64,000 bases of DNA. It comes from an uncultured Enterobacterales bacterium (GTDB lineage: Bacteria > Myxococcota_A > UBA796 > CAJQPC01). Below, in pieces: positions 13,950 to 62,402 of this stretch (its first letter is position 1; each line of letters starts with the position of its first letter). The position numbers and the translations under genes are program-made. The notes under the pieces were generated by a model. That model was given only the letters and a program-made list of their open reading frames with translations, ran no database searches and was not told the origin of the DNA. The DNA lies in assembly GCA_964519895.1 (NCBI GenBank), contig CAZFLE010000005.1:16417-80416 (forward strand). The letters are read 5' to 3'.

Positions 13950-13973
13950 GGGCAGGAGGCTCTGGCGGAATCA

Positions 13974-14029
13974 TAGGGTTCACCGGCACTCTGCGCACCT
14001 GGTTTCTCCCCCGTCATCGGGTAGGGTTC
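13974..14029. promoter_or_regulatory. Divergent promoter spacer with an 8-bp direct repeat TAGGGTTC (13974-13981 and 14022-14029)
   Basis: The 85-bp spacer lies between the giant gene start (13949, minus) and ATG 14035 (plus). 'TAGGGT' fits a TAnnnT -10 hexamer, and the second copy ends 6 nt before ATG 14035. On the minus strand, 'TATGAT' (complement of 13971-13976) lies about 20 nt upstream of ATG 13949. Confidence 0.3.
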
Positions 14030-14034
14030 GCCCG

Positions 14035-15522
14035 ATGCTGCACGCACGCTCCGAGCTCGAGGTCGCTGGATGGCTGCTGCTCCACGAGGCCGATGTGCAG
14101 CGCACCGTGCGACAGGAGGAAGGGGAACACACGCGGATCGTCCACCACTGCCAGGCGGGGCCCGACGACCCGCCCGTGACCCACGCGTTCCTCATCCCGA
14201 ACGGAACGCCCCCGGACCACTGGGGCGTGCTGACGTCGGCGGAGTGGCTGGCCCTGGCAGACAGGATGTTGACAGCCATCCCGCGGTCCCCGGCAGGCCT
14301 GATCCGGCCGGTGCTGGACGCATGCTGCGAAGAACTCGACGTCGCGCTGAGGTGCTGCCACGAGGCGGCGCGGATCCGACCCCCGCTCTCGGCCCGAGCG
14401 AACGGGATCCGGGCGGCGTCGGCGGTGTTCCGCTCCGTGCGCCCCTTTGCGCCCCGACCCAGACCTCTGGCGGAGCTACCCGAGGTCCTGGTCGCCGCGC
14501 GGCTTGCGCCAGACGCAGCCGAGCGCGCACGCACCGCGGCCCCCATCTCGATGGAGGCGCTGCACGGGGGGGCTCTGGGGCCCTGGGGCTTCGTCGGGCG
14601 GATCCAGGACCCGGTGCCAGCGGCGCTCTACCGCCACGCCTCCGGCGCCGTCCTCCAGGCCGAGGTGGTGGGCGACACCGCCGTCGCCATCCAGCTGTGG
14701 GAAGGCCGCGAGGCCCTGGACGCGCAGCTGGCGCACGCCTTTCGCCTGCCCGCGAGCGTGGTGCGGGACCTGGACCGGGGGCTCAGGCCCGGCGCGACGC
14801 GACCGGAAATGGTGGCCCGGCTCCTGGGGCCCCACGACGTGCTCACGCCGCTCTTCGGGGTCGTCACGGGGGATCAGGAGCTGCGCTTCTTGCGGCTCGA
14901 GACCCGGGGGGTGGTGCACCGCACCGTCGTGCTGTGCCTGATCCTGACCGGCGGGGTCGTCACGGGCTTCCGGGTGCTCCAGGGGCGTGTGGCCCTGGAG
15001 CAGCTGGTCCTGATCTCGGAGACGGCGCACCTGTTCGGCGGGCCGGGGGATGGCCCTACCGTCGGGCCCGCTGACGCCCAGACCAGCATCGACACCATCG
15101 CCCAGGCCCTGGCCCCGCTGCTGTCCGGCATTCGGCGGGGCGAGGTGGACATCCGGACCCTCCAGCCCCGGCCGGGAGACGCCGGCCGGGTGTTCCGAGG
15201 GGTGGACCTGGAGCGGATCCAGCGGACCTATGACGGGCTGTGGCAGGCCGATCCCCCCCGGCTCTCGGCCGCGGCCGACCAGACCGAGCTGGTGGTCCAC
15301 GTCTCCACGGGCGGTGCCCTGGGGTCGGGCCACGAGCTCTCCCATGGCTTCTCGGAGCACTACCAGTCCATCGCCCCCCACCTGGTGCCCGAGCGCACCT
15401 GGGTCGCGTGGAGCTTCCGGCGGCCAGGAGAAGAACGCGGGCGACGCTTCGAAGGGCTGGTGTGGGTCGGGGACCACTGGGCGTGGTTCCCCAAGGCGTG
15501 GCGGGTGGTGTCGGGGGGGTAG
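14035..15522 (+). CDS. Hypothetical protein (495 aa), divergent neighbour of the giant toxin gene
   Basis: GC3-rich ORF. I chose ATG 14035 ('MLHARSELEVAGWLLLHE..') because the track start 13882 would overlap the toxin gene start and encodes Arg/Pro-rich sequence. Nearly Lys-free; no family recognised. Confidence 0.6.
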   Translation: MLHARSELEVAGWLLLHEADVQRTVRQEEGEHTRIVHHCQAGPDDPPVTHAFLIPNGTPPDHWGVLTSAEWLALADRMLTAIPRSPAGLIRPVLDACCEELDVALRCCHEAARIRPPLSARANGIRAASAVFRSVRPFAPRPRPLAELPEVLVAARLAPDAAERARTAAPISMEALHGGALGPWGFVGRIQDPVPAALYRHASGAVLQAEVVGDTAVAIQLWEGREALDAQLAHAFRLPASVVRDLDRGLRPGATRPEMVARLLGPHDVLTPLFGVVTGDQELRFLRLETRGVVHRTVVLCLILTGGVVTGFRVLQGRVALEQLVLISETAHLFGGPGDGPTVGPADAQTSIDTIAQALAPLLSGIRRGEVDIRTLQPRPGDAGRVFRGVDLERIQRTYDGLWQADPPRLSAAADQTELVVHVSTGGALGSGHELSHGFSEHYQSIAPHLVPERTWVAWSFRRPGEERGRRFEGLVWVGDHWAWFPKAWRVVSGG

Positions 15523-15525
15523 CCG

Positions 15526-15726
15526 GACAGACAGAGGACTCCAACGCCGCACCTGCTGCAGACAGAGGGGTCGAGTGCCGGTACAGGGAGGCCACAGAGC
15601 CCTCTGAAGGCGTCAATGGGCCCTGGTGACGCGGTCTCCTGCGCTTGGAGCGCCTGCCGGGCGGTGAGCCCCCGACACCCGACCCCTCTGTCTGCAGTGA
15701 CTGCGGCGTTCGACCCGGCTGTCTGC
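15526..15726. repeat. Nested palindromic intergenic element, copy 1, between convergent genes
   Basis: The inner 18-bp inverted repeat is perfect: CTGCAGACAGAGGGGTCG (15556-15573) with CGACCCCTCTGTCTGCAG (15680-15697). The outer arms are imperfect (15526-15551 with 15702-15726, sharing AACGCCGCA/TGCGGCGTT). It shares the 11-mers AGAGGGGTCGA and GCGTTCGACCC with the element at 39107-39286. Confidence 0.7.
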
Positions 15727-15728
15727 GC

Positions 15729-16325
15729 TCACCCGACCCTTGCCCACACCAGACAGTGGTTGTTCGCCGGCATCGCCACGACCTCTTGCAGCGCCAGCCC
15801 GTGCAGCGCCGCCAGGGCGATCACGTCCACGAGGTCCCGGACCCCCCAGCGGGGGTCACGCTGCTGGAGCGAGCGATCGAAGCGGACGTTGCTGTCCGAC
15901 GTCCACACACCCGCGAAGCGAAACGGCCCATAGAGTACGAACACACCGCCTGGCGCCAGCACGCGCGCCAGCCCCGCGAACAGCCCCTGGGCGCTCTCCC
16001 AGGGCGAGATGTGGATCATGTTGCAGCACACCGCGCCGTCCACGACCCCGACCCCCCAGTCGGTGTCGCAGGTGTCCAGTCGCACCGGCGCCAGCAGGTT
16101 CGGCGCAGCCACGGTGTCCCGCCAGGCGGCGATGCTGGCCAGGGCGTCGGGGTCCCGGTCGGTGGGCTGCCACGCCAGCCCGGGCAGCCGCGGGGCCCAC
16201 CAGGCGCTGTGCATGCCCGTGCCCGCCGAGAACTCCAACACCCGCCCCCTCGCCGGCAACACCCGCCGCAGCACGGCCAGGATCGGGTCGCGGTTCCGCT
16301 CACAGGCGGGCGAGTAGCGCTTCAC
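15729..16325 (-). CDS. DUF938-family class I SAM-dependent methyltransferase (198 aa)
   Basis: 'KRYSPACERNRDPILAVLRRVLPARGRVLEFSAGTGMHS..' matches DUF938. GTG 16325 lies 4 nt after the upstream stop (16330-16332). ATG 16400 is a possible alternative but would overlap the upstream gene by 71 nt. Confidence 0.75.
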   Translation of the reverse strand: MKRYSPACERNRDPILAVLRRVLPARGRVLEFSAGTGMHSAWWAPRLPGLAWQPTDRDPDALASIAAWRDTVAAPNLLAPVRLDTCDTDWGVGVVDGAVCCNMIHISPWESAQGLFAGLARVLAPGGVFVLYGPFRFAGVWTSDSNVRFDRSLQQRDPRWGVRDLVDVIALAALHGLALQEVVAMPANNHCLVWARVG

Positions 16326-16329
16326 CGGC

Positions 16330-19300
16330 TCAGTCCGGGCAGCCCTCGACCACCCAGGTCTCAATGATCGCCAGGGTGGCCTTGTCCAGGAAGGGGCCAC
16401 CGCGAGGCATCTGCTGCCCGGCGCCGCCCACGTCGCCCTGGGTGTTGTTGAGCTTGTGCCAGATGTAGCTCTGGGAGGTGTCCCCGGGCTCGAAGAGGTC
16501 CATGGCCGGCACGTCGATGGAGGCCACGTTCACGTGGTCCACCGTGCCGTTGTCCATGTTGAAGCCACCGCTCGCCGCACCGCTCAGGTGGCAGCCGTCG
16601 CAGTTGGCGTCGAAGATCGGCTCGATGTCCGTGGCGTAGGTGTAGGTGTAGCTGTCCACGCCGTCGCAGTCCTGGTCGATGCCGTCGCCGTTGATCTCGG
16701 TGGCGCCCGGGTTGATGCCGGCGTCGCTGTCGTCGCAGTCGGTGTTGTCCGCCGACGTGTTCGACGGCTGGAGACAGGCCAGGGTGCCGGGGTCGGTGTC
16801 GTCGCCGTAGCTGTCGCCGTCGGCGTCGGCGTACCAGGTGGACCGACCGGTCACGCCGGCGTCTGCGTCGTCGATGTCGCCGTTGCAGTCGTTGTCCACG
16901 CCGTCGCAGATCTCGGTGGCGCCCGGGTTGATGGCGATGTCCCCGTCGTCGCAGTCGACGTCGGACGTGAAGCCGTCGCCGTCGGCGTCGGGCGGGCCGG
17001 CGTCGCAGTCGTCGTTGGCGCTGCCGGGGGTGCCGGAGTCGCCGCTGCCAAAGGTGCTCGTGGCCGCGCACCAGTTGGCGCCGTCGTCGTTCTCGGTGAC
17101 GTCGAGGTGGTCCCCGTCGAGGGAGATCGACGCACCCGCCGTGTTCGGGAATGTGGCTCCCCCGTCGTAGGCGACCTGATCGATGGTCAGGCTGCCGTTG
17201 TACAAGAAGACCTCGTCGGCGAAGTTGGCCAGCCGGTGGGTGCTGCCGTACTCGTGGTCGACCGTCACGCCGCCGTTGGCCGCGGCGTCGCCGTCGATTC
17301 CCAGCACCACGTACTCACCCGCCAACACGGGCACGGACCCAGAGACCTGGACCCACTCGCCCATCACGGCGACCGAGGTGTCGAAGATCTCCAGCCCGTC
17401 CAGCTCGATGGTCACCAGCGTGTTGTTGTAGATCTCGATCCACTCGCCGCGCAGGTCACCGACCGCCACCGGGTTGTGGTGGAGCTCGGTGATGATCAGG
17501 TCCCCTTCGATCAGATCCCCGACCGCCAGGTCCGAGCCGCCCCCGGTGCAGGCGTCGTTGGCGCTGCCCGGGGTGCCCAGGTCCCCGTCGCCGAAGGTGG
17601 AGGTCGCCGCGCACCAGTTGGCGCCGTCGTCGTTGCTCAGATCGTCGAGGGTGTCCGGGTTCAGGCTGAAGCTGGCGCCCGTCGGGTCCGGGAAGGTCAG
17701 GCCATTGTCCCAGGACACGCTGTCGATGATGGTGCTCCCCACCCCCAGGAACAGCTCGTCGGACGCATTGCCCAGGGTGTGCGCACCCCCATAGGTCTCG
17801 GCCAGGCTGACGCCCCCGTTGACGCCCAGGTCGCCGTAGCGCCCGAGCAGCACGTAGGCGCCGGGCTCGACCAGGACCCCGCCAGAGAGGGTGACCAGGT
17901 TGCCCTTGGTCGTGCTGTCGGTGTCGTAGAGCTCGAGTCCGTCCAGGTCCACGGTGCTGCCCGTGGCGTTGTAGAGCTCCATCCACTCGCCGGCGTTGTC
18001 CGGCACGGCGTCGGGGTCGACCATCAATTCCGTGATGACCAGATCGCCCGCCGTCAGGTCGTCGACGGACAGCGCACAGCTGTCGTTGGCCGCGCCCGGG
18101 GTGCCCAGGTCCCCGTCGCCGTAGCTCGACGTCGCCACGCACCAGTTGTTGCCGTCGTCGTTGTCGGTGGCGTTCAGGTGATCGGGATCCAGGATCATCG
18201 CCGCACCGCTCGGGTCCGGGAACGTGAAGCCGTTGTCCCAGGACACGGAGTCGATGACGTCGGTGCCGTTGTACAGGAAGGTCTCGTCGGCCGCATTACC
18301 CAGGGTGTGACCGGTGCCGTAGGCGTAGTCCAGGGTCACGCCACCGTTGGTGGCGACGTCGGCCCTGCGGCCCAGGACCGCATAGGCCCCCGCCGCGACG
18401 AGCACCTGTCCAGAGACCGTGATCTTGTCGGTCTGGGCGGCGACCGAGGTGTCGAAGACCTGGAGTCCGTCCAGGTCGACCACGCCAGCGGTGTTGTTGT
18501 AGATCTCGAACCACTCGCCGCGGTTGTCGGGCACCGCCGACGGCTCCTTCATGATCTCGGTGATGATCAGGTCACCGGCCACCAGATCCGCGACCGCCGT
18601 CCCGCCCCCGCCGCCACCGCAGCTGTCGTTGACCGCGCCCGGTGTGCCCAGGTCACCGGCGCCAAAGGACGAGGTCGCGTCACACCAGCTCGACCCGTCA
18701 TCGTTGCTGGTGGCGTCCTGGCTGGCCGAGGACAGGGAGATCGAAGTGCCGGCCGTGTCGGGCCAGGTGCTGCCGTTGTCGTAGGCGATGCTGTCCAGCA
18801 CGGTGGACCCGTCGGACAGGAAGATCTCGTCGGCGCCATTGCCCAGGGTGTGGGCGAAGCCGTAGGCGTAGTCCAAGGCGACGCCGCCATTGGCGCCGGT
18901 GTCCGAGTTGCGGCCCAGCACCGCCAGCCCGCCGTCGGCGACCACCACGCTGCTGCCCACCGTGACCAGGTTGCCCTGGGTGACCTCGTCGGTGTCGAAG
19001 ATCTGGAGACCCTGAAGGTCCACGTCGACCCCGGCGGCGTTGTAGATCTCGAACCACTCCCCCGCGCCAGCGCCCGAGGCCACGGGCTCTTTGAAGATCT
19101 CGTTGATCACCAGGTCCCCGACCGCCAGCTCGGTGACGGCAAAGGTCGAGCAGCTGTCGTTGGCCGCTCCCGGCGTGCCCAGGTCGCCGTCGCCGTACGC
19201 CGACCGCGAAACGCACCAGCTGGCGCCGTCGTCGTTGCTGGTGGCGTCCTGGCTGGCGCTGTCCAGGCTGATGCTGGCCCCCGTGGGATCGGGGAAGCTC

Positions 19301-30884: not shown

Positions 30885-30903
30885 TCGGTGGTCTATCGCC
30901 AGG

Positions 30904-31992
30904 TCACTCGCAGGGCCCGGGCGCATCAGCGCCGGCCGAGAGCGCGTAGAGCAGCTCGGAGTGCTCGCTGTAGAAGCGCACGTCCTCCAACCGACGGCTG
31001 GCCGTGCAGACCGAGACCCAGGCAAAGCCCCCGACCTGGTCGGTCTGGTAGGTGACCGGCAGCTCGCCCTCCAGAGCCCGCAGCCCGGCCGTCGCGCCGC
31101 TGATGAGCTGGGGCGACGCGCACAGCTCCGACGTCATGAACAGGGCCAGATTGTGATCGTGGCCGCTGATCACCAGGTCCGCGTGGCCACAGACGAAGTC
31201 GTCATAGAAGACCTTGAGGCAAGCCCCGGCATCCCGCCCAGCCGCTGTGCTCGGGCGGTGGGTGTCCTTGCAGCTCAGGTCGTCGCCCGCAGGCCGGTTG
31301 GCGTAGTCCCCGACCACGCCGTGCTGGCCGTTGGACAGGTAGGCGTGGTGTCCGAGGGCGACTCGGAAGCGGTCGGTCTGGTCCCGAAAGGCGGGCCCCA
31401 GGGTCGTCCATGCGCTCGACTCCCCGCCGCCGCCCTGGTCGTCGATGCCCCACATGATCCGGTGGGTGTCCAGCGCCAACAGGGACAGCCCCGGCGCGGG
31501 CTCGCCGAGCCACTGCCAGGCCGGCATCTCGAAGTGGGTGTCCCGGGTCGCGCTGTAGCTCAACTGGTACCCCGCCCGCACGTCATCGAAAGCCTCGCCG
31601 CCCTCGCACTCCCCGTCCAGGGACTCCCGGTAGTCGTGGTTGCCCAGCACAGCGTGCCAGGGCATGCCCAGGCTGCCGAAGGGCACCTCGAAGTCCTCGT
31701 CAAAGGAGGGATCGTCGACGCTGTCGACGCCACAGGTGTAGAAGAGATCCCCGGCCATCAGCCCGAAGTCACAGCCCTTCTGGGCGCACACCCGGGCCAA
31801 GGCGTCGACCACACCGTCCCGAATGTCGGTCCTGACACCGCTGTCCCCGACCACGACGAACCTGGCCCGGACCGGGGGCTCGTCGCCCGGGTCGGTGGTC
31901 TCGATTGTGCCCGTCTGTCCCGTCGGAGGGGCCCGCGAGGAGTCCCCCGTGGCCGGACCGCCCGAGTCGCACGCCAGCAGCAGGAGCCACAT
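30904..31992 (-). CDS. Calcineurin-like metallophosphoesterase lipoprotein (362 aa)
   Basis: 'MWLLLLACDSGG', then 'FVVVGDSG', 'MAGDLFY', 'VLGNHDY', 'ALGHHAY' and 'VISGHDHN'. An alternative GTG 32025 overlaps the upstream TGA (GTGA). The remainder of track ORF 30904..33462 is out-of-frame shadow sequence overlapping the sulfatase gene on the same strand. Confidence 0.8.
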   Translation of the reverse strand: MWLLLLACDSGGPATGDSSRAPPTGQTGTIETTDPGDEPPVRARFVVVGDSGVRTDIRDGVVDALARVCAQKGCDFGLMAGDLFYTCGVDSVDDPSFDEDFEVPFGSLGMPWHAVLGNHDYRESLDGECEGGEAFDDVRAGYQLSYSATRDTHFEMPAWQWLGEPAPGLSLLALDTHRIMWGIDDQGGGGESSAWTTLGPAFRDQTDRFRVALGHHAYLSNGQHGVVGDYANRPAGDDLSCKDTHRPSTAAGRDAGACLKVFYDDFVCGHADLVISGHDHNLALFMTSELCASPQLISGATAGLRALEGELPVTYQTDQVGGFAWVSVCTASRRLEDVRFYSEHSELLYALSAGADAPGPCE

Positions 31993-32021
31993 GCCGCCAG
32001 TGTAGTCAACCGCAGGCCCGA

Positions 32022-36035: not shown

Positions 36036-37419
36036 TGGCCAGATCACGGAAGAACACCACCACACCCACCGCCAGCGCGACCCAGGCACCGGTCTGGAGC
36101 GGCAGGGCGGCGGGACGGTCCTCGAGGCGGGGCAGGATCAGCTCCTGGATGGCCATCGCGATGACCAGCACCAGGCTGCAGAACGCGCACACCCCCAGCA
36201 GCGCCCAGGTGGCGGTCCACTGCTCGGGGGCCGCCTGGAAGGGACTCAGGGTGAAGAAGTGGAGCAGTCGCGAGATGTCCGTCTCGCGGAAGATCAGCCA
36301 GCCGACGTTGGTGAAGCCGAACATGAGCACGATGGCGGCCAGGCCGCTGCCGGGCAGGTCCTTGACCGCCTGGGGGATGCGGGGCACGACCAGCCGGTAG
36401 CCGGTGAGCAGCGCGGCATGGAACGCCCCCCAGAGCACGAAGGTCCAAGCCGCGCCGTGCCACAGGCCACTCAGGAGCATGGCGATGAAGGCCGAGCGGG
36501 TCGCGACCCAGAACCCACCCCGAGAACCGCCCACCGCGAAGTAGACGTAGTCCCGGATCCACGACGAGAAGGAGATGTGCCAGCGCCGCCAGAAGTCCGA
36601 AGGGTTCTTGGCGATGTAGGGGTGGTCGAAGTTGACCATCAGCTCGAAGCCGAGAATCCGGGCCAGGCCCCGGGCGATGTCCGAGTAGGCCGAGAAGTCA
36701 GCCAGGATCTGGATGGCGAACCCGAGGGTGGCTGCCCAGATCAGCGGGCCCGAGGGGTCCTCCAGGATGAAGACCTTGTCCACATAGGGGGCGATGGTGT
36801 CGGCCACGACCACCTTCTTGAATGCCCCCCACAGGGCCAGGCTGAGGCCGCTGCGAACCGCCACCCAGGAGAAGACCCGGTCGAGCTCCATCTGGGGCAG
36901 GAGGTTCCGCGCCCGCTCCACAGGCCCGGCCACGAGCTGCGGGAAGAAGCTGACGAACACCACGTAGTCCAGGAAGTTCGTCCTGGGCTCCAGCTGCCCC
37001 CGGTAGATGTCCAGGGTGTAGCTCATGGTCTGGAAGGTGAAGAAGCTGATGCCCACGGGCAGGAAGATGCCCAGGGTGTGGAGGCTGGTCTCCACCCCCA
37101 GCAAGCCAAAGACCCCGATCACGTTCTCGATGAAGAAGTCGCAGTACTTGAACGTGCCCAGCATGCCCAGGTTGCCGCACAGGCTCAGGACCAGGAACAG
37201 GCGCTTGCGGGACGGCAGCCGGACCATGCCCAGCCCGCAGAAGTAGTCCAGGGTGGCGGAGCCGTAGAGCAGCAGCAGGAACCAGGGGTGGACCCAGCCG
37301 TAGAAGATGGCGCTGGAGACCGCGAGCAACCCGTTCTGGAGGCGTCGGCTCGGCATCGACCAGTACAGGCCGAACACCAGCACGATGAACACCAGGAATT
37401 CAACCTGCACAAAGGTCAT
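36010..37419 (-). CDS. MBOAT family O-acyltransferase (AlgI/DltB/PatA-like, 469 aa)
   Basis: Polytopic. 'FFTFQTMSYTLDIYRG', 'FFPQLVAGPVERA' and 'NPSDFWRRWHISFSSWIRDYVY' (conserved His). Confidence 0.9.
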   Translation of the reverse strand: MTFVQVEFLVFIVLVFGLYWSMPSRRLQNGLLAVSSAIFYGWVHPWFLLLLYGSATLDYFCGLGMVRLPSRKRLFLVLSLCGNLGMLGTFKYCDFFIENVIGVFGLLGVETSLHTLGIFLPVGISFFTFQTMSYTLDIYRGQLEPRTNFLDYVVFVSFFPQLVAGPVERARNLLPQMELDRVFSWVAVRSGLSLALWGAFKKVVVADTIAPYVDKVFILEDPSGPLIWAATLGFAIQILADFSAYSDIARGLARILGFELMVNFDHPYIAKNPSDFWRRWHISFSSWIRDYVYFAVGGSRGGFWVATRSAFIAMLLSGLWHGAAWTFVLWGAFHAALLTGYRLVVPRIPQAVKDLPGSGLAAIVLMFGFTNVGWLIFRETDISRLLHFFTLSPFQAAPEQWTATWALLGVCAFCSLVLVIAMAIQELILPRLEDRPAALPLQTGAWVALAVGVVVFFRDLANDFIYFQF

Positions 37420-37476
37420 GGCACGGGGCTAACGCCCTGGTGAGACCTGGGGTGACCGGGCTAAAAGCGGCGCTCC

Positions 37477-39096
37477 ATGCCCGACTCCACCCACGACTTC
37501 GTCATCGTCGGAGGCGGCTCGGCCGGCTGCTGCCTGGCGGCCCGGCTCAGCGAAGACCCGGGCTGTCGCGTCCTGGTGCTCGAGGCCGGTCGACCCGATG
37601 CCTGGTGGGACCTGTTCATCCACATGCCGGCGGCCTTGACGATCCCGCTGGGCAACCCGCGCTACGACTGGTGCCACGTGTCCGAGCCCGAGCCGTTCAT
37701 GGGCGGCCGCCGGGTGCGGCACGCCCGGGGCAAGGTCCTGGGCGGCTCCAGCAGCATCAACGGGATGATCTTCATCCGCGGGAACCCGGCGGACTTCGAC
37801 CGCTGGGCTGCGGAACCCGGGATGGAGACGTGGGACCACGCCCACTGCCTGCCCTACTTCCAGCGCATGGAGAGCCGGCTGGGGGGCGGTCCCCTGCGCG
37901 GGTCCGACGGACCCCTGGGGCTCGAGGTCGGCCCCTGCACGAACCCGCTCTTCGCGGCCTTTCTCCAGGCGGTGCAACAGGCGGGCCACCCCCTGACCGA
38001 CGACGTGAACGGTGCGCAGCAGGAGGGCTTTGGCGCCTTCGACCGCAACATCCGCCGGGGCCGCCGCCTGAGCGCCGCCCGGGCCTACCTGCACCCGGTG
38101 CTCGACCGCCCGAACCTGGACGTCCAGTGCCGCGCCCGTGCCACCGGCATCCGCTTCCAGGGCACCCGAGCCATCGGCGTCGACTACCGGATCGGCCGCC
38201 GGGACCGCTTCGCGGCAGCCGGCACCGTGATCAGCTGCGGGGGCGCCTTTGCGTCGCCCCAGCTGCTGCAGCTCTCCGGCATTGGCGACGCCCAACGCCT
38301 CCGGGAGCTCGGGATCGAGCCGGTGCACGACCTGCCGGGCGTGGGCCAGAACCTCCAGGACCACCTCGAGGTCTACGTGCAGCACGCCTGTGCACAGCCG
38401 GTGTCCGAGCAGCCGAACCTGGCCTGGTGGCGCAAGCCCTGGCTGGGCTACCGCTGGCTGGTCCACCGGGACGGCGCCGCCGCGACGAACCACTTCGAGG
38501 CCGGGGGCTTCGCCCGCTCCAACGACACGGTCAGCCAGCCCAACCTGCAGTTCCACTTCCTGCCGCTGGCGGTGCGCTACGACGGCTCATCCCCGGTGGG
38601 GGGCCACGGCTACCAGGTGCACGTAGGGCCGATGCTCAGCGAGAGCCGTGGGTCCGTGCTGCTGAAGAGCGCTGATCCCTTCGAGGCACCCGCCATCCGC
38701 TTCAACTACCTGTCGAAGGAGCGGGACCGGCGGGAGTGGGTCGAAGCGATCCGCTGCACCCGGGACATCCTGGGTCAGCCGGCCTTCGCCGGGCTGGACG
38801 CAGGCGAGCTGTCCCCCGGTCCCGACCTGCAGACCGACGACGAGCTCCTGGACTGGGTCGCCCGGGACGCCGAGACGGCCCTGCACCCCAGCTGCACCTG
38901 TGCCCTCGGCGTGGGACCCGATGCGGTGGTCGACCCGGCCACCATGCGGGTCCACGGGGTCGAGGGCCTGGCGGTGGTCGACGCGTCGGTCATGCCGTCG
39001 ATCACCAACGGGAATCTCTACGGCCCCACCATGATGATCGCCGAGAAGGCCGCGGACCTGTTGCGGGGGGACACACCTCTGGCGCCAGAGCGCTGA
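37477..39096 (+). CDS. GMC family FAD oxidoreductase, choline-dehydrogenase-like (539 aa)
   Basis: '[22 protein letters not shown]', '[18 protein letters not shown]', '[16 protein letters not shown]', 'HPSCTCALG' and '[29 protein letters not shown]'. Confidence 0.88.
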
Positions 39097-39106
39097 CCCG
39101 ACACGC

Positions 39107-39286
39107 GGAGAGGGGTCGAACGCGACACCTCCCACATGGAGAGGGGCTGAACGCGACAAGATCGGCCCAGAAGGCCCTTGCACGGCCCTCCAAAGGCCCT
39201 CAGATCGGTCGAATCGGCCCTGGGGCAAGCAATCTGTCGCGTTCAGCCCCTCTGCGCGTGGCGACTGTCGCGTTCGACCCCTCTCC
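39107..39286. repeat. Nested double-palindrome intergenic element, copy 2, between convergent genes
   Basis: A = GGAGAGGGGTCGAACGCGACA (39107-39127) pairs perfectly over 21 bp with A' (39266-39286). B = AGAGGGGCTGAACGCGACA (39140-39158) pairs perfectly over 19 bp with B' (39235-39253). A and B are direct repeats differing at 2 positions. The 76-nt core is rich in GGCCC and has two AGATCGG copies. Confidence 0.85.
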
Positions 39287-39292
39287 ACCTGC

Positions 39293-42200
39293 TCAGGGCT
39301 CGTAGAGTCCCGCGGCCGTGAGCTGCTCGATCAGCACCGAGGTGCGGTGCGGAAAGAACTCGGTCCGCAGCCGCTCCCGCTCGGTGAGCCACTCCACGTC
39401 GCGGGTGTAGGGCGCGGACCGGACCGCGTCGCCCCAGCGAGCGGACTCGCCGACCACCGCGTTCCAGATCTCGTCGGCCCGGGCGTCCCAGCGGGCCAGG
39501 CAGGCGTCGGCGGTCAGGGCACCGTCTCCGGTCAGGTGCTCTCGGGCCCGGGCGGCGTAGCGGGCGCGGAAGTCCGGATTGTCCCGCAGCCGGGCGTAGA
39601 CGTGGGAGATGCTGCCGGCCACGTCCACGTCGATGTTGTAGTCATCGGTCGCCGCCCAGATGCTGTACTCCATGTCCCACAACAGCCAGTGGAACTGGGC
39701 GCCGTCGACCCGCTCCCGCACACCGCGCATGTTGTTGGACGAGAAGATCTCCGGGCCGTCCATGTTGACCGTGTACTGGTGGATCAGCATGTAGTCGATG
39801 AGGTCGTCCAGGTTCAGCATGGCCTCGACCGCCACATAGTTCGCGGGCACTGCCAGGTCTTCGTCGGCCAGGGCGAGCAGGGTGTTGTAGGCCTCCAGGT
39901 CGCCGTTGATCGCCTCGTTGGTGGTCGTGCGGCGGTTGATGGCGTCGTAGTCCTCGTCGCGCCCGCCCAGGTACTCCTCAGCGAAGCCCGCGTCGGGGCG
40001 CTCGACGGGGTTGTAGAGGCCCCAGTAGAGCCCGTTCAGGTACAGGTGCACGACCGTGGCGTGCCCGTCGAGCTTGCCCATGTCCCGGGCGGTGTCCCGG
40101 GCCCAGCTGTCCCGGATGTACTGGGCCTGCTCCGGGTCCCGAAAGTCCTGCCAACCCCGGCTGCCCTGGCAGCGCAGCACGATGCTGTCGAAGCGCTCGG
40201 CCGGAGAGTCCACGAACAGCGGATAGTCCAGCTTGGAGGGGCCGTACTCCGGTCGGAATTCCAGCCTAAGCGCGTGCTTGCGGGTCGAGGAGTGATAGCG
40301 CCAGCCATAGCCGTGCACCCGCACCCCGGCGTCGACCTGGAACCCGGTGGACCCGTCGGGCAGGATCAGCTCGACCGACGTGGCCCGCTCCCAGGCCCGA
40401 CCCCGCTGAAGCGAGTGCACGTAGAGCCCGTCGTCGGCCCCGAACAGGTCCTGGGGGTCCAGCACCAGGGACATCGTGGGGATCTCCCGAAGCCCGTCGA
40501 GCAGGTCCCGGGCATAGGCGGCGGCGTCGACGATCTCGGGATCCATCTCGTAGTCGGCGGCCACCGCGGCCTGATCCAGGCCGTCCCAGGTGGTGGGGAA
40601 GCCCTCCGGCGCTGCCGGCTGACGGACCACATCGTCCAGGTAGAGGTAGGTGTGGGTCGCGACCGGGGACGGCTCCAGCCCGTCCTGGAAGGCGACGGCT
40701 CGCAGGATGGCGGTGGTCTGCACGTCGACCACGACGGATGCGGCGGCCACCTGGACCCCGTGGTCCGGACCGGGCACCGAGCCGTCCAGGGTGTAGGCCA
40801 GGGAAGCCCCGGCGGTGTCGGTGGCCAGGGTGACCTGGAGGGGGGCGTCGTAGAAGCCCCTGGGCGGGTCCAGGGTCACCGGGGACACAAAACCCCCGAA
40901 GCCCGTGCCGTTGGGGGCCCCGGGGGTCGGGGTCGAGAACCAGGCCAGCTCGCCGGTGTCCAGGGCCGTCGCCGTCAGGGTCGGCGCCAGGAACAGGTCG
41001 TCGTCGTCGACGGAGGTGGCGTGGAAGGCCACGCTGGTGACCAGGGCGGGCGCTTGCTGCCCGGCTGTCGTGGCCACCCCGTCGATCCAGACCGACGCCG
41101 CGTCGTCCACCTCGAGGGCCAGGTCCAGCCGCTCGGGCACCGCGTCTCCGCTCACCGACGCCCGCACCCAGACCTGGGGCCCGTCCAGCAGCCCTGCCAG
41201 GTCGGTGCCCAGCCGCTCGGCATAGGGCGAGGCCTCGCCCACCCGGACTTCGACCTCGGCCAGGCTCAGCCACTCGCTGCTGCGCACCCCACCCACGGCC
41301 TCCTTGGAGACCCGCACGAACCGGCCCGACACGCCGCCGGGGGCCACGCCCAGCTCGGCTCCGGGGTTGGTCGGGGTGCCGTCAGCCGCCACCGGGTTGA
41401 GCACCTCGGAGACCCAGACCGGGGCGCCCCCATCGTCGTAGACCGTGACCGTCAGGTTGTAGAACCGCTCGGGACAACAGTCGATCCGGTTGAAAAGTGC
41501 GACTTCGACCATCGGCTGCTCGCTGCCCAGGTCCACCTGCCACCACGGCGCCAGGTCCCCGTCGCCGGTGTGGGTAAAGGTGCTCAGCTCCCCGTCGGTG
41601 CCCTGGACGCCGGTGTAGCCGTACCCATCGGACGACTGGGTGGTGGCCTGGAACAGCGCGGCGTTCTCGACCGGAGCGTCGGGGTCGACGTCGGTGCCGT
41701 CGAAGCCCACCGGCAGCGTGCCTGGGGCCCAGGCAGCGTCGTCGAACCCCGGGTCGGTCCAGTCGGCGCTGGGCTCGGTCCCCGTCCACAGCACTGCGCT
41801 GCCGTCCCCCAACCACACCGTGTCCGTGGCGGTCTGTTCCCACCCGTAGGACACGTCTTCGACCTGGTCGGCAAAGCTCAGCCCGTCGGCCACGACCCCG
41901 TCCGGTCGCAGCAGCCGGACCGTCTCGCCCGCCCCGCCCAGCTTGAAGTCCGTGTGCCAGGCGCCGTCGGCATCCACCCTGTCCTTGCCCGACGCGAAGA
42001 CCACCCGGAAGCCCCCGCCCACCAGCTCCGCCGCCGGCAGGACCCAGCCGTCCTGCGCGGCGTCGTCGTCGGTCAGCATCCAGCCCGCCAGCGACACGCT
42101 CTCGGGGCCCGGGTTGAACAGCTCGATCCAGTCGCTGCTGTCCCCGTCGGCGTCCTCCAGGCTGCCGCCGTTGCGGGCCAGGACCTCGTTGATGCGCAGG

Positions 42201-44356: not shown

Positions 44357-46219
44357 ATGCTGCTCACCGCCCTGCTCCTGACCGCGTGCACCGACAAGCC
44401 CGACGACACCGGTCACACCGGGCTGCCCGCCATCTGTCACAGCGGCTCCCGCTGGTCCAACGGCCAGACCGCGTTCCGGGACGCCTCCAGCGACTGGGGC
44501 CTGCCAGACCTGGATGCAATCGGGGTCGTGATCAACGCCGTGGACTTCGACGGCGACGGCTGGACCGACCTGGCGATCCGCCACCACAGGGGCGCCGACG
44601 ACTTCTCCGACGGCGGCACCCGCAACACCTGGCTGCTGCGGAACAACGGCGGCAGCTTCCTGGACGTGACCCAGGACAGCGGCGTGCTCGCCCGGCGGGA
44701 CGACGACAGCGACAAGGGCCGCCCGGGCCAGGTCTGGGCTTTTGGCGACGTGGACAACGACGGGGACCTGGACCTGTACACCGGCTGCCCGGGCGCGGTC
44801 GTGAGCTGCGACGGCCAGTCCAACGAGCTGATGCTCAACGACGGCGACGGCACCTTCAGCCTGGGCCCCGAGAGCCGGGACCTGGCCTATGAGAGCAGCC
44901 CCGGCGGCGCGGCCTTTGTCGACGTGGACCGCGACGGCGCCCTGGACCTGTGGGTCGCCGAGTACAACGCCGCCCAGGACCGCCTGTACCAGGGCGACGG
45001 CGGCGGCGGCTACACCGACGTCACCCACGACGCCGGGCTGACCACCGACGCCTGGTCGTCGGTGACCACCCTGAACAACGCCGAGGCCCACACCAATGCC
45101 TGGTCCGCCCTGGCCTGCGACCTCAACAACGACGGGGATCCGGAGCTGTTGGCCAGCTCCTATGGCCGGGCGCCGAACCACCTGTGGCAGGCCACCGACG
45201 GGCTGGCCTTCGACAACCGCAGCATCGCCAGCGGCTACGCCTTCGACGACCGGGTGGACTGGACCGACAACGAGTCCGCCCGCTGCTGGTGCAAGCTCCA
45301 CCCCACGGACGACGACTGCGAAGGGGTGCCCGAGCCCGAGCTCATCGTCTGCAACACCGACAGCGACGCATTCCGCTGGGACCACAACTACGACCGCGAG
45401 GCCTTCCGGCTGGGCGGCAACAGCGGCAAGAGCGCCTGCGCCGACGTCGACAACGACGGCTGGATGGACCTGGTCACCACCGAGATCGTGCACTGGGACG
45501 TGGGCCAGAGCTCCGATCCGAGCGAGCTGCTGGTCAACACCGGCGCCACCGACGTGGCCTTCACCCGCCCGGGCCGGGAGGCGACGGGCCTGACCCGCGA
45601 CCACGAGCTGGTCGACTGGAACGAAGGCGACATCACCAACTCGGTGTTCGACTTCGACCTGGACGGCTGGCCGGACATCTACCTGGGCGCGTCGGAGTAC
45701 GCGGGCAACCGGGGCTTGCTGTACCACCAGAACTCGGCGGGCCTGTTCGAAGCCGTGCCCATCGACCAGGGCATCGACCACTTCCGCAGCCACGGCAGCG
45801 TGGTCGCGGACTTCGACCGGGACGGCGACCTGGACCTGGTGGTGGGCCACTCCAGCTCCCGGTGCGACGACGACTGCTACGACACGTTCTCGGTGCGGCT
45901 GTTCGAGAACCAGCTGGCCGACGACGCGAACTGGATCCAGCTGCGCCTGGCGGGCGGGGACGGCACCAACGCCGCGGCCATCGGCGCCCGGGTCAGCGTC
46001 ACCGCAAACGGCGTGACCCAGACCCAGGACGTGGACGGCGGCCACGGTCACTACGGCAACCAGGACGACCTGGTGCTCACCTTTGGCCTGGGCGGGGCTT
46101 GCGAGGCCGACGTGACCGTGCGCTGGCCGGACAGCGGGCTCTCGGAGCAGAGCTTCACCGTCGGGGGCGGCTACCGCTACCGGGTCGATCAGGGCCAGCC
46201 GCCCCAGGTCGTTCCCTGA
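44357..46219 (+). CDS. FG-GAP/VCBS repeat plus ASPIC/UnbV (CRTAC1-like) lipoprotein (620 aa)
   Basis: 'MLLTALLLTAC'. Repeated 'D[FV]D[GN]DG..DL' FG-GAP calcium loops. C-terminal 'NWIQLRLAGG..NAAAIGARVSV..QDVDGGHGHYGNQDDLVLTFGLG....VTVRWPDG'. Confidence 0.85.
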   Translation: MLLTALLLTACTDKPDDTGHTGLPAICHSGSRWSNGQTAFRDASSDWGLPDLDAIGVVINAVDFDGDGWTDLAIRHHRGADDFSDGGTRNTWLLRNNGGSFLDVTQDSGVLARRDDDSDKGRPGQVWAFGDVDNDGDLDLYTGCPGAVVSCDGQSNELMLNDGDGTFSLGPESRDLAYESSPGGAAFVDVDRDGALDLWVAEYNAAQDRLYQGDGGGGYTDVTHDAGLTTDAWSSVTTLNNAEAHTNAWSALACDLNNDGDPELLASSYGRAPNHLWQATDGLAFDNRSIASGYAFDDRVDWTDNESARCWCKLHPTDDDCEGVPEPELIVCNTDSDAFRWDHNYDREAFRLGGNSGKSACADVDNDGWMDLVTTEIVHWDVGQSSDPSELLVNTGATDVAFTRPGREATGLTRDHELVDWNEGDITNSVFDFDLDGWPDIYLGASEYAGNRGLLYHQNSAGLFEAVPIDQGIDHFRSHGSVVADFDRDGDLDLVVGHSSSRCDDDCYDTFSVRLFENQLADDANWIQLRLAGGDGTNAAAIGARVSVTANGVTQTQDVDGGHGHYGNQDDLVLTFGLGGACEADVTVRWPDSGLSEQSFTVGGGYRYRVDQGQPPQVVP

Positions 46220-47031
46220 GCCTGGGGCTGCTGGCCCTGGCTTGCACGGCGGGAGACCCCGTCGACAGCGGGCCCACGGACACGGACACGGACTGGACCC
46301 CGAGCCCCGGCGAGCCGAGCTGGGACATCGAGGAGGCCCTGGCGCGAGCGACCGAGGCGCTGGCGTCCGGGGTGCCCGAGCCCCACGCCCTGCGCGACGC
46401 CTGGCTCGCCACGATGGCCGAAGGGGACGAGGTCTGCCCGGGACACCCGACCAACCTGGGCCCGCCGTCGGTGGACGAGCAGGGCTGCACCGCGTCGACC
46501 GGCTGGCACTACGCCGGCATCGCCACGTACTCCGAGGGGGGCTGGTCCGACGGCGACGAGGGCCAGACCTGGTTCGGGCTCTTCCAGGGGGACTTCGCGA
46601 TCACCGCACCCGACGGCTCCGCATTCGTGGGTGGCGGCACCTTTGCTTACGACGGCCTGCGGCAGGACGGCGAGAGCGGCTTCCAGGGATCGGTCGAAGG
46701 CACCTTTGCCTGGCCCGGCGGCGCCGGTTGGCTGGCGTCCGAGGCGAGCGTCGCCCTGGCACTGTCCGGCGACGACACCACCCTGGTGCTCGACGGCGGG
46801 ATCGACGTGGGCACGACCCTGGCCTTCGACGAGCTGACCTGGGGCAGCTGCCCGGAGCAGCCCACCGGCACCCTCTCGATCCGGGATCCGTCGGGCTGGT
46901 GGTACGCCCTGGCGCTCGAGGCGTGCGGCGGCTGCGGCAGCCTGAGCTTTGGCGGGGTCGACGCCGGAGAGGGCTGCGTGGATCTGGCCGCCCCCGGTGC
47001 CGACACCCTCACCCGGCTGGTGGTCCCGTGA
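46216..47031 (+). CDS. Small Cys-rich lipoprotein (about 271 aa); the start codon is uncertain
   Basis: Clear GC3-rich coding frame with the lipobox 'SLGLLALAC' at the very beginning. No ATG, GTG or TTG lies in frame upstream of the lipobox. CTG 46216 overlaps the upstream TGA (CTGA). The next canonical in-frame start (GTG, about 46372) would delete the signal peptide. Confidence 0.55.
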   Translation: MSLGLLALACTAGDPVDSGPTDTDTDWTPSPGEPSWDIEEALARATEALASGVPEPHALRDAWLATMAEGDEVCPGHPTNLGPPSVDEQGCTASTGWHYAGIATYSEGGWSDGDEGQTWFGLFQGDFAITAPDGSAFVGGGTFAYDGLRQDGESGFQGSVEGTFAWPGGAGWLASEASVALALSGDDTTLVLDGGIDVGTTLAFDELTWGSCPEQPTGTLSIRDPSGWWYALALEACGGCGSLSFGGVDAGEGCVDLAAPGADTLTRLVVP

Positions 47032-48599
47032 TCGCGCTCTGGTGGCTCGCCTGCACCGGTCCTGTCCAGGACTCCGCGGCGCCCCTGGAGCCCGTCCAGG
47101 TCCCCCTCGAGCCAGCGCGACTGGCCCGCCGGCTCTCCCTGGACCTCCGGGGGGTGCTGCCGAGCGAGACCGAGCTGGACCGGGCCGAAGCCGGTGAGCT
47201 GGACGCGCTGCGCAACGCGTGGCTGGCGGATCCTCGCCTCGAGGACCGCCTGGTGGCCGTGCTTGGGGAGAGCTGGCACACCCTGGTCGACGCCTTCGAG
47301 GCCGAGGCCTTCGAGTTCGGTCTCGACCCCGACCAGGAGCACGCCTTCGAGCGGGCGGTGGGCGAGGAGCCCCTGCGGCTGATGGCGCGGGCGATCACCG
47401 AAGGCGCAGCGCCGGCGACCCTGGTGACGGCGGAGTGGACCGTCGTCGATCCGCTGCTGCTGCCCCTGTGGCCACTGGAGGCACTGGAGCAGGGGGATGG
47501 CCCGGTGCGGGCCCGCTACACCGACGGTCGCCCGCCCGTGGGGGTGCTGGCGACCAATGGGCTGTGGTGGCGCCACACCACGACCACCGAGAACGCCAAC
47601 CGGGGCCGGGCCGCCGCCATCGCCCGGCTGCTGACCTGTGAGGAGCTCACGGGCCCAGTCAGCTTTCGGGTCGGCTCGTCCCTGCTGGAGGAGGACGGAA
47701 CCTCCACGGCGATCCGCGAGGATCCCGCCTGTCAGAGCTGTCACGACACCCTGGAGCCCCTGGCCGCCACGCTCTTCGGGTTCTGGTGGTTCGAGGCCAA
47801 CAGCGTCGCCGAGCTGAGTCGCTACCACCCGGAGCGGGAGCTCCTGGGGCCCCAGGAGCTGGGGGTCACGCCGGGCTGGATGGGCACCGAGCTGGCGGGC
47901 CTGGTGGAGCTGGGCCAGGTCGTCGCCCGGGACCCGTCGTTCGAGCCCTGCCTGGTCCAGACCCTGGCCCAGGGGTTCTGGCGCCGGCCCGTCGACGCCG
48001 GAGACGACGGGACCCTGGCGGCGCTGGGCACCGAGCTGGACCAGCACCAGGACCTGCTGGCGCTGCTGGCGGGCGTGATCCAGGCCCCGGCCTACACCGC
48101 CGGTGGCCTGACGACGGCCGCCACCGACGCCGACCGGGATCGGGCCCGCACCGACCGGCTGCTGACGCCCGAGCAGCTGGCCACTGCGGTCGAGGAGCTG
48201 ACCGGCTTCCGCTGGTCCATCGTGGGCTTCGACATGTTGCGCACCGACGACCCCGGCGTCCGGGTGCTGGCCGGGGGCGTCGACGGCCGCAGCGTGACCC
48301 GGCCCCAGGAGGACCCGGGCTTGACCTGGGCGCTGGTGGTCCAACGCCTGGCCCAGGCGGGGGCGTGGCAGGCGGTGGCCGACGGCCGGCTGGACGCGGG
48401 CCTGGCACCAGACGACCCCGGCTTCACCGAGCAGCTCCAGCACTGGCACCGTCGGACCCTGGGCACGGCGGCCGACGACGAGACCGTCGCCGGCCTGACC
48501 GCAATGTGGCAGACCGTCGACGACGCCGACGGGCCCGACGCGGCGTGGCGGGCCGTGCTCGAGGCCCTGCTGCGCGACCCCGCTTACGTGAGCCTGTGA
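47028..48599 (+). CDS. DUF1549/DUF1588-like lipoprotein with a single CxxCH motif (523 aa), partner of DUF1501
   Basis: GTG 47028 overlaps the upstream TGA (GTGA). '(M)IALWWLAC', 'ARRLSLDLRGVLPSETELD', 'ANRGRAAAIARLLTCEEL' and 'DPACQSCHDTLEPLAATLFGFW'. Confidence 0.55.
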   Translation: MIALWWLACTGPVQDSAAPLEPVQVPLEPARLARRLSLDLRGVLPSETELDRAEAGELDALRNAWLADPRLEDRLVAVLGESWHTLVDAFEAEAFEFGLDPDQEHAFERAVGEEPLRLMARAITEGAAPATLVTAEWTVVDPLLLPLWPLEALEQGDGPVRARYTDGRPPVGVLATNGLWWRHTTTTENANRGRAAAIARLLTCEELTGPVSFRVGSSLLEEDGTSTAIREDPACQSCHDTLEPLAATLFGFWWFEANSVAELSRYHPERELLGPQELGVTPGWMGTELAGLVELGQVVARDPSFEPCLVQTLAQGFWRRPVDAGDDGTLAALGTELDQHQDLLALLAGVIQAPAYTAGGLTTAATDADRDRARTDRLLTPEQLATAVEELTGFRWSIVGFDMLRTDDPGVRVLAGGVDGRSVTRPQEDPGLTWALVVQRLAQAGAWQAVADGRLDAGLAPDDPGFTEQLQHWHRRTLGTAADDETVAGLTAMWQTVDDADGPDAAWRAVLEALLRDPAYVSL

Positions 48600-60782: not shown

Positions 60783-62402
60783 TCAGCCCCCCCGAATCAA
60801 CTCCGCCGCCCGCTCCCCGATCATGATGCTGGGCGCGTTTGTGTTGCCCCCGGTGACCGTGGGCATGATGCTCGCGTCGGCCACCCGCAGGCCCTCGAGC
60901 CCCCGCACGCGCAGGTCCGGTCCGACCACCGCCCGCTCGTCGCTGCCCATCCGGCACGTGCCCACCGGGTGGTACACGGTCGCCACCCGGTTGGGCAGCT
61001 CCCGGGCCATGGCCTGGCGGTCCTGGAACTTGGGGCCGGGCTCGAACTCACCGTCGAGCGTGGGCGCGATGCCCTTGGAGCCCATGATCTCCCGGCACAG
61101 GTCGATGCCGTCGAGCAGATGGGCCACGTCGTCCGGCTCCTCCAGGAAGTGGGGATCGATGTGGGGCTTGTCGCTCGGGTCGGCCGACCGCAGCAGGACC
61201 TCGCCCCGGCTCTTGGGGTAGATCAGCGTGGGCTCGACGGTCAGGGCCCCCCGTAGATCGACCTTGGGGATCTCCTCGTCGTTGTCCCGGTTCGGGGCCG
61301 GATACGACCAGGGCAGGGTGTGGATCTGCAGGTTCGGGATGCGCTCGGACGGCGACGTCTTGAGCCACGCCATGGTCTCGAAGACCGTGCGGCTGAACCA
61401 CGTCGAGCCCGGCTTCCACTTCTCCCGCAGGATCGCCTTGAGGAAGTGCCAACCGGTGCCCGTGTGGCCCGAGTTCGGCGCCAGGAAGACCAGGGGCACG
61501 AAGAGGTGGTCGTGCAGGTTCTGGCCGACCGGCAGGTCCTGGACCACGTCGATGCCGTGCTCCCCCAGGTGGGCGGCGGGCCCCACCCCGGAGAGCATCA
61601 GGATCTGGGGAGACCCGATGGCCCCGCCGGACAGCACGACCTCGCGGTCCGCCCGCAGGGTGCGGAGCTCGCTGCCCACGGCCACCTCGACGCCCACCGC
61701 CCGGGTGCCTTCGAACAGCACCCGCCGGCACTGCGCGCCCGAGAGCACGTCCAGGTTCGCTCGGTCCAGGTGGGGGTGCAGGTAGCCCTCGCTGGTCGAG
61801 TAGCGGAGGCCGTCCTTGGCGTTGACCTGGACCCGACCCACGCCCTCCTGCTCGAACCCGTTGTAGTCGTCGGTCCAAGGCACCCCGGTGACCTGCTGAC
61901 AGGCCTCGCCAAAAGCCACCGACGCCGGGCTGATCTCCACGTCGGTCCGCACCACGTGGATGGGCCCCGAGCCGCCCCGGTGCTCGCTCTCGCCGTCTTC
62001 GAAGGACTCCATGCGCTTGAAGGACGGCAGCACGTCGGCGTAGGACCAGCCGGGACATCCATCCGCGGCCCAGTCGTCGAAGTTCTGCCGGTGGCCCCGC
62101 ACGAACACCATGCCGTTGACCGCGCTCGAGCCACCCAGCACCTTGCCGCGCACGTACGGGATCTTCCGCTCGAGGGTGTGGGCGTTCGGCGTGGTCTTGA
62201 AGCCCCAGTCGAGCTTCTTCTTGAGCTGGGGCACCACGTGCAGGATGGACATCATGCCCGGGGTCCGGCACAGCATGGTCCGGTCCGAGCCCCCGGCTTC
62301 GACCAGCAGGACCGAGACGTCGGGGTCCTCGCTCAGCCGGCTGGCGATGACGCAGCCGGCCGAGCCGGCACCGACGATGACGTAGTCGTGAGAAGTGCGC
62401 AC
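60783..62402 (-). CDS. GMC family FAD oxidoreductase, second paralog (539 aa)
   Basis: GTG 62402 '(M)RTSHDYVIVGAGSAGCVIASRLSED', '[18 protein letters not shown]', 'HPVGTCRMG' and 'VADASIMPTVTGGNTNAPSIMIGERAAELI'. The track start 62495 overlaps the upstream gene. Confidence 0.85.
   Translation of the reverse strand: MRTSHDYVIVGAGSAGCVIASRLSEDPDVSVLLVEAGGSDRTMLCRTPGMMSILHVVPQLKKKLDWGFKTTPNAHTLERKIPYVRGKVLGGSSAVNGMVFVRGHRQNFDDWAADGCPGWSYADVLPSFKRMESFEDGESEHRGGSGPIHVVRTDVEISPASVAFGEACQQVTGVPWTDDYNGFEQEGVGRVQVNAKDGLRYSTSEGYLHPHLDRANLDVLSGAQCRRVLFEGTRAVGVEVAVGSELRTLRADREVVLSGGAIGSPQILMLSGVGPAAHLGEHGIDVVQDLPVGQNLHDHLFVPLVFLAPNSGHTGTGWHFLKAILREKWKPGSTWFSRTVFETMAWLKTSPSERIPNLQIHTLPWSYPAPNRDNDEEIPKVDLRGALTVEPTLIYPKSRGEVLLRSADPSDKPHIDPHFLEEPDDVAHLLDGIDLCREIMGSKGIAPTLDGEFEPGPKFQDRQAMARELPNRVATVYHPVGTCRMGSDERAVVGPDLRVRGLEGLRVADASIMPTVTGGNTNAPSIMIGERAAELIRGG

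Follow-up and report, generated by a model that had tools for sequence, protein, structure and literature searches.

What is the sequence that fills the gap between two convergent genes of an uncultured bacterium, and how did it come to lie there? The window, by which we mean the whole stretch of 64,000 nucleotides that was analyzed, has a GC content of 70.6% and contains MopE copper-binding motifs and LTD-rich giant proteins; its nearest named homologues are labelled Myxococcota. A GMC oxidoreductase (choline-dehydrogenase-like) gene on the plus strand ends with a TGA stop at 39094-39096, and the gene of a CotH/LTD/F5-F8 protein on the minus strand ends at 39293-39295 (TCA on the plus strand). 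A first-pass annotation had described a nested double palindrome between these stops and had offered a REP/MITE-like element, a bidirectional terminator, a structured sRNA and a recombination site as possible identities.

The gap from the GMC stop to the CotH stop measures 196 nt, as had been annotated, and the element, 39097-39292 on the plus strand (copy 1 in what follows), occupies it entirely. The GMC stop lies 3 nt ahead of the GACAC terminus, which belongs to a left terminal stretch CCCGACACGC (39097-39106, plus strand) and carries the motif with which each 31-nt unit starts. There follow on the plus strand the outer left unit A, GGAGAGGGGTCGAACGCGACA (39107-39127), a left linker CCTCCCACAT (39128-39137), the inner left unit B, GGAGAGGGGCTGAACGCGACA (39138-39158), and a core of 76 nt (39159-39234). 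The same parts then return on the minus strand as the inner right unit B' (39235-39255, reverse complement GCAGAGGGGCTGAACGCGACA), the right linker (39256-39265, reverse complement GTCGCCACGC) and the outer right unit A' (39266-39286). A' is reverse-complementary to A at every position (21/21) and B' matches B at 20 of 21 positions, 19 of them contiguous, while A and B start 31 nt apart and differ solely by TC/CT, so that both the nested palindrome and the near-identical direct repeats reported previously stand as described. In general form the unit reads GACAC-GGAGAGGGG(TC/CT)GAACGCGACA and then a few bases of linker, each arm being made of two such 31-nt units in tandem, and throughout the family the arms are inverted around a GGCC-rich core of 76-88 nt. 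GACAC or GACAG stands ahead of an AGAGG core at five of the six element ends that were compared, and the 31-nt spacing of the units amounts to about three helical turns. In the core of copy 1 GGCC occurs at offsets 5, 14, 25, 36 and 57, and the five GGCCC observed in 39159-39234 are to be compared with 0.33 expected from the window, in keeping with the GGCCC-rich core of the earlier description. The unit pattern itself, with up to three mismatches, has 4 matches in the 64-kb window vs 0.02 expected from shuffles.

When flanks and linkers are included the arms of copy 1 extend over 57 nt with 84% complementarity, as given by a repeat finder. The long hairpin predicted from the palindrome is recovered in RNA folds of both strands, with energies of -128 kcal/mol for the plus strand (z = -11.2) and -142 kcal/mol for the minus strand (z = -12.3) and with 0 of 200 shuffles as low in either case; by these calculations, either strand of copy 1 can fold into a hairpin whose arms are 57 bp long. 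Pairing mismatches in copy 1 are found at 1 of 42 unit positions vs 8 of 15 in linkers and termini (Fisher p = 3e-5), and in the arm comparison 4 of 10 bases of the left linker pair with the right linker. In a further copy, on metagenome contig L009 (see below), it is the units of the left arm that have decayed and not the linkers, so that a pairing constraint specific to the units is not general. The linker that follows the outer unit reads CCTC/CCTG in the left arm and GTCG/GTCA in the right arm (as reverse complement) in both copies of the window, a shared asymmetry that gives each of them a predicted 4x4 internal loop, conserved between the two, and fixes a polarity. GGCC recurs in steps of ~10.5 nt in both young cores (the 39-kb copy and that on L009), although these cores align poorly, at ~65% identity.

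The 39-kb element is also carried by an independent ENA assembly (L017), unchanged but for one base at 39291, and is therefore not an assembly artefact. The organism of the window has been assembled, at 99.8-100% identity, in several JGI, ENA and Logan metagenomes, and it occurs in JGI 3300009481 and 3300009703, in ENA ERZ27249630, ERZ27251151 and ERZ27251152, and in SRR6056609 and SRR5211068. Overall, the window and L017, two strains of this organism, are 99.77% identical and their differences fall almost wholly in three dense SNP patches (38652-38805, 39410-39443 and 46881-47120) which look like recombination tracts and bring few amino-acid changes; two of these lie on either side of the 39-kb element, ~300 and ~120 nt away from it, and the element in between does not differ. 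The ENA contig of L011 ends at ~39080, inside a 14-nt perfect palindrome CTCTGGCGCCAGAG (39077-39090) just ahead of the element, and two contigs of the organism end at ~37389 while another begins at 37576, around the MBOAT/GMC divergent region. Allele differences, coverage loss at hairpins or repeats are possible causes of the contig ends at ~39080 and ~37389-37576. Exact-protein look-ups meant to extend the window at its right end returned solely a 5-kb contig from within it.

Further copies of the element exist. An inverted-repeat search of the window revealed a diverged second copy at 15523-15728 on the plus strand, with 54-nt arms and a covariance-model score of 167.9 bits. Its units, at 15531-15551 and 15562-15582 (direct) and at 15671-15691 and 15702-15722 (inverted), are again 31 nt apart in each arm and enclose a core of 88 nt, and the copy-2 unit ACAGAGGGGTCGAACGCCGCA is recognizably alike the copy-1 unit GGAGAGGGGTCGAACGCGACA; copy 2 is older than the 39-kb copy. 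It too is placed between convergent stops, on one side that of a plus-strand gene for a hypothetical protein (13882/14035-15522; TAG at 15520-15522) and on the other that of a DUF938 methyltransferase-like gene on the minus strand (15729-16400; stop at 15729-15731). Copy 2 is present in each of the seven contigs, from independent JGI, ENA and Logan assemblies, that span its site at 15.5 kb, and in one of these assemblies it carries a single SNP, T>C at 15540. The third copy, at 6907-7102 of L009, turned up when 241 million metagenome records were scanned with a pattern of two adjacent units; it has a core of 76 nt and a fold z of -10, and its two right-arm units are identical to A'. L009 may come from the same organism as the window, to judge by composition (tetranucleotide correlation 0.987, the value for the window's own strain being 0.995). 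Another contig returned by the two-unit scan, L008, was rejected, its match at 6560-6690 being a low-GC tandem array of a ~30-nt unit CTGTCATTTCGACCGGAGCGTTCCTCCCCT unrelated to the element. Two copies lie in the 64-kb window and the two-unit scan of 241 million records added just one further locus; with these three copies known, the family may have few members, or most of them may have decayed.

These three copies measure 193-206 bp and contain no credible ORF of their own, and in each the arms are 54-61 nt long with 80-84% complementarity. A covariance model built from them, R1, scores the 39-kb copy at 195.9 bits over 39099-39294 and the L009 copy at 181 bits, its next-best match in 173 kb (window plus relatives) reaching 11 bits. 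Of the 69 predicted pairs 23 are changed on both sides in at least one copy, which indicates that the pairing of the palindrome is kept through sequence change. The gene contexts are unrelated (GMC/CotH, hypothetical/DUF938 and TCAD9-phosphatase/unknown) and all of them are non-promoter gaps. Copy 3 is located between co-directional genes, ~5 nt past a TGA and ~40 nt ahead of the next likely start codon, and stop codons are found 1-8 nt from five of the six element ends.

Comparison with relatives, also proposed at the outset, bears directly on how the 39-kb copy arrived. In L003, the closest syntenic relative, the GMC, CotH, FG-GAP/ASPIC and MFS genes follow in the same order with 75-85% amino-acid identity; GMC and CotH share 13 bp at their ends there, without the element. 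Alignment places 195-205 bp of extra sequence in the window at the GMC-CotH junction, and identity with L003 restarts exactly at CTCAGGGCTCGTAGAG, one base past the CotH stop, so that the edges of the insertion lie somewhere in 39086-39099 on the left and at 39291/39292 on the right. This comparison, made with one relative that is ~80% identical, shows the GMC-CotH junction of L003 to be an apparent empty site, the 39-kb copy having evidently inserted between the convergent 3' ends. Less probably, the element was lost by deletion in the lineage of L003 rather than inserted in that of the window. The last GMC codons vary among orthologues (APER* in the window, DPQGS* in L003, GPA* in L027), and the GMC tail with its stop codon may derive from the element or from a mirrored copy of the CotH flank. 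Other convergent genes of this genome are tightly packed, lying 6 nt apart or overlapping, as illustrated by the 6-nt gap between L010 17845-19626 and the gene from 19633 onward, and gaps of 200 nt therefore look like additions. In the relatives at 70-78% identity (L018-L024, L026 and L027) these genes are flanked by different neighbours, so that no second empty site was obtained from them, and searches with nhmmer and the covariance model yielded no member of the family there. With at least three copies and an empty site in L003, the picture is not that of an element unique in its genome and lacking conservation.

Beyond this lineage the family could not be found in the collections that were searched. 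The exact 21-mer, sought in 185,579 species genomes, gave two lone matches, in a Polyangiaceae genome and in Lysobacter, neither of which has the architecture of the element, and both are attributed to chance. No member of the 21-mer family was detected in viral contigs, nor by blastn in plasmids or phages. This absence from species genomes, viral contigs, plasmids and phages makes the family look young and confined to the lineage of the window, and so far it has been seen only in one uncultured Myxococcota-like bacterium. No Rfam family matched near the element at E <= 1 or anywhere in the window at gathering score, and a tRNA scan returned nothing. A literature search for MITE or REP elements in myxobacteria produced nothing relevant, and the unit sequences were likewise without a match.

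We consider the element to be, probably, a lineage-specific, non-autonomous palindromic repeat of MITE/REPIN-like kind that is inserted at gene ends, its hairpin probably ending or stabilizing both convergent transcripts. It has the features by which mobile repeats are recognized, being shorter than ~500 bp and non-coding, with terminal inverted repeats, dispersed copies and presence/absence between relatives. The class is ordinary, that of interspersed hairpin repeats; the family is new and its doubled, phased architecture is uncommon. In the working that we propose, an enzyme whose gene lies at another place in the genome would mobilize the element in trans, and copies would survive where ~200 bp do least harm, that is, in the few bases between gene ends. 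Since both flanking genes read into the element, the hairpin would form in both mRNAs, where it could act as a stop that is independent of a U-tract, as a structure that protects or processes the 3' end, or as both, for each of the two transcripts. A role as terminator or at the 3' end is a plausible consequence of the predicted hairpin.

Several other kinds of mobile element come close to this description. A classical MITE of the TIR type would be a deletion derivative of an insertion sequence, moved by a DDE transposase with two binding sites per end, these being the 21-nt units. The terminal inverted repeats do hold duplicated 21-nt units whose 31-nt spacing fits protein sites on the same face of the helix, the units of the 39-kb copy pair far better than its linkers and termini, and L003 provides an empty site. 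The ends of Tn7, Mu, IS21 and Tn402/Tn5053 contain ~20-nt repeats, direct within an end and inverted between ends, and so do those of the element; the former, however, have 5'-TG...CA-3' facing outward, as is expected of Mu, Tn7 and IS21-type ends, and are associated with 5-bp duplications, whereas in the element the TG/CA of each unit points toward the core. No target-site duplication is found at any copy when the six ends are aligned (with termini defined to within a few bases), which counts against a MITE of the DDE/TIR type, and no transposase, recombinase or integrase is evident among the window genes that were scanned. Nor do the 185,579 species genomes, the plasmids, the phages or the viral contigs contain a parent insertion sequence with these ends, and in L009 decay has reached the units of the left arm but not the linkers, so that we regard a TIR-type origin as unlikely. 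The lack of a target duplication is what a REPIN in the strict sense would predict, with arms that are REP sequences and a folded single-stranded DNA that is cut and pasted by a RAYT (HUH/Y1) enzyme without duplicating its target. REPINs of Pseudomonas fluorescens are REP doublets that form hairpins, with symmetric ends and a constant spacer, and the features of the element match (PMC3116915): the two ends are conserved, the spacer between them is less so but constant in length, with a 76-nt core in both young copies, and there is a hairpin with compensatory changes. Like REPINs the element is also non-coding and extragenic, with inverted ends and a lineage-specific sequence (PMC3116915). Its arms, however, each consist of two tandem 31-nt units, with neither unit nor arm palindromic in itself, and it is about twice as long. 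Units and whole arms fold no better than shuffles (z -0.9 to +1.7), so the units are not REP palindromes of the kind that RAYTs recognize and the defining feature of a REP is missing; there is moreover no GTAG-type 5' motif, the window genes scanned include no RAYT, and the copy number looks low, a few rather than hundreds. A strict REPIN is accordingly quite unlikely in our judgement, and of the REP/MITE-like identity suggested at first it is the repeat character that has held, through three copies at unrelated loci and an empty site, and the strict REP that has not. About as unlikely is a hairpin mobile element of a kind not described before, defined by arms of tandem 31-nt modules, a core with GGCC in ~10.5-nt steps and a conserved 4-nt asymmetric internal loop, which some novel enzyme would move and set down a few bases from stop codons.

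The remaining explanations dispense with transposition or invoke a different chemistry. Were the sequence a bidirectional intrinsic terminator, evolved in place and immobile, its position between convergent stops and its very stable hairpin on both strands would be accounted for, as would the sequence-unrelated long hairpins that relatives have in similar gaps; as in a Rho-independent terminator, a GC-rich hairpin comes straight after the stops and could serve both convergent genes. The arms, however, are 57 bp long vs 5-15 bp, and there is no T-run in the element nor any site in a terminator consensus scan of 38800-39600, so that it is not a canonical terminator. It belongs, moreover, to a dispersed repeat family in which three loci have the same unit sequence and architecture, which independent local evolution could not produce, and L003 has an empty site; evolution in place is in our view most improbable. 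We give only a small chance to the reading that a host protein binds DNA or RNA at the units and the phased core, and that this array of sites is kept for nucleoid organization or regulation and not for mobility. The 31-nt spacing of the units, the ~10.5-nt GGCC steps that persist in both young cores despite poor core alignment and the 4-nt asymmetric internal loop conserved in both window copies would all suit such an array, while the location of the copies at gene ends and not at promoters, and the absence of the site from the syntenic relative L003, speak against it; the motif is also missing from every species genome sampled, which is hard to square with a conserved function in the host. 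An integron attC-like site, with nested R''-L''...L'-R' repeats that an integrase recombines as folded single strands, is hardly tenable. It would share with the element the nested A-B...B'-A' layout of outer and inner inverted-repeat pairs and a variable centre; attC sites have an unpaired central spacer, which the unpaired linkers between the boxes of the element recall, and the units hold GTCGAAC/GTTCGAC, one mismatch from RYYYAAC/GTTRRRY. The scale is nevertheless different, at 180-205 nt for the element vs 57-141 nt, as are the boxes, 21 nt long and 31 nt apart vs ~7 nt long and ~12 nt apart, and the consensus. In genomic context, too, the two diverge, since the element lies here between convergent chromosomal genes that are large and syntenic rather than between cassettes, the window copies are 24 kb apart, and the window genes that were scanned showed no integrase. 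For a recombination site more generally, one of the initial proposals, we find nothing specific in favour, and the structured sRNA fares no better, with no Rfam match and a poorly conserved core. A retron msr/msd locus was also considered and rejected (no reverse transcriptase nearby, three differing contexts and no Rfam match).

Palindromic repeats of MITE-like type are familiar from other bacteria. Correia elements of Neisseria and ERIC/IRU sequences of enterobacteria are ~100-150 bp long and are co-transcribed with neighbouring genes, their hairpins alter the ends or the stability of mRNAs, and they differ in presence or absence between related strains; Correia elements, in addition, have a TA duplication as well as IHF and promoter motifs. 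The present element is without sequence relation to either group, no TA duplication, IHF or promoter motif was seen in it, and its doubled units and phased GGCC core have no Correia or ERIC counterpart.

Hairpins also fill gaps at gene ends in relatives of the organism. In L018, with 73% identity in CotH, a long imperfect hairpin (13001-13165, z = -5.5) fills the gap directly after the CotH orthologue, and in L024 a long hairpin at 5553-5627 fills the gap after a gene end. The next convergent gap of L018 holds a separate palindrome (13996-14163) whose right-arm units GCGGAAGTTC.GGGGGACTCCGTG (14109/14140) are 31 nt apart. As a homologue of the window family the L018 palindrome was rejected, local alignment being no better than with shuffles. 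By analogy, these gap-filling hairpins, unrelated in sequence, would fit a general role at 3' ends in the clade, and the recurrence of the 31-nt spacing in the unrelated L018 palindrome hints at a superfamily with fast turnover in marine Myxococcota. The L024 region (5553-5700) comprises a palindrome with 37-nt arms straight after the stop in a convergent gap, followed by short tandem repeats of the GGTGCGTGGTG type. Within the window a simple hairpin at 46190-46239, with 19 bp, 95% complementarity and a 12-nt loop, overlaps the FG-GAP/ASPIC stop and shows what the ordinary gene-end type looks like here, in contrast to the element with its 57-bp arms.

The present family adds an interspersed palindromic repeat to those of Myxococcota and provides a clean before/after case in which a hairpin element is wedged between overlapping convergent genes and parts them. 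Annotators stand to gain from recognizing such elements, since these break metagenome assemblies and mimic structured RNAs. Should the doubled, helically phased build turn out to reflect a new mechanism of mobilization or binding, the interest would be wider.

A few further observations were made in the window. The reading frame at 3-13970 on the minus strand belongs to a giant gene that continues beyond the left end of the window; on L011, a longer ENA contig, it is called at more than 9,000 residues. At ~30900-32000 there is ~1.1 kb between convergent genes with no Rfam match and no ORF of the high third-position GC that typifies this genome. Finally, a second GMC oxidoreductase paralogue is encoded at 60783-62402 on the minus strand, and exact-protein look-ups place its called start at GTG 62402 instead of at the ATG further upstream (62495).
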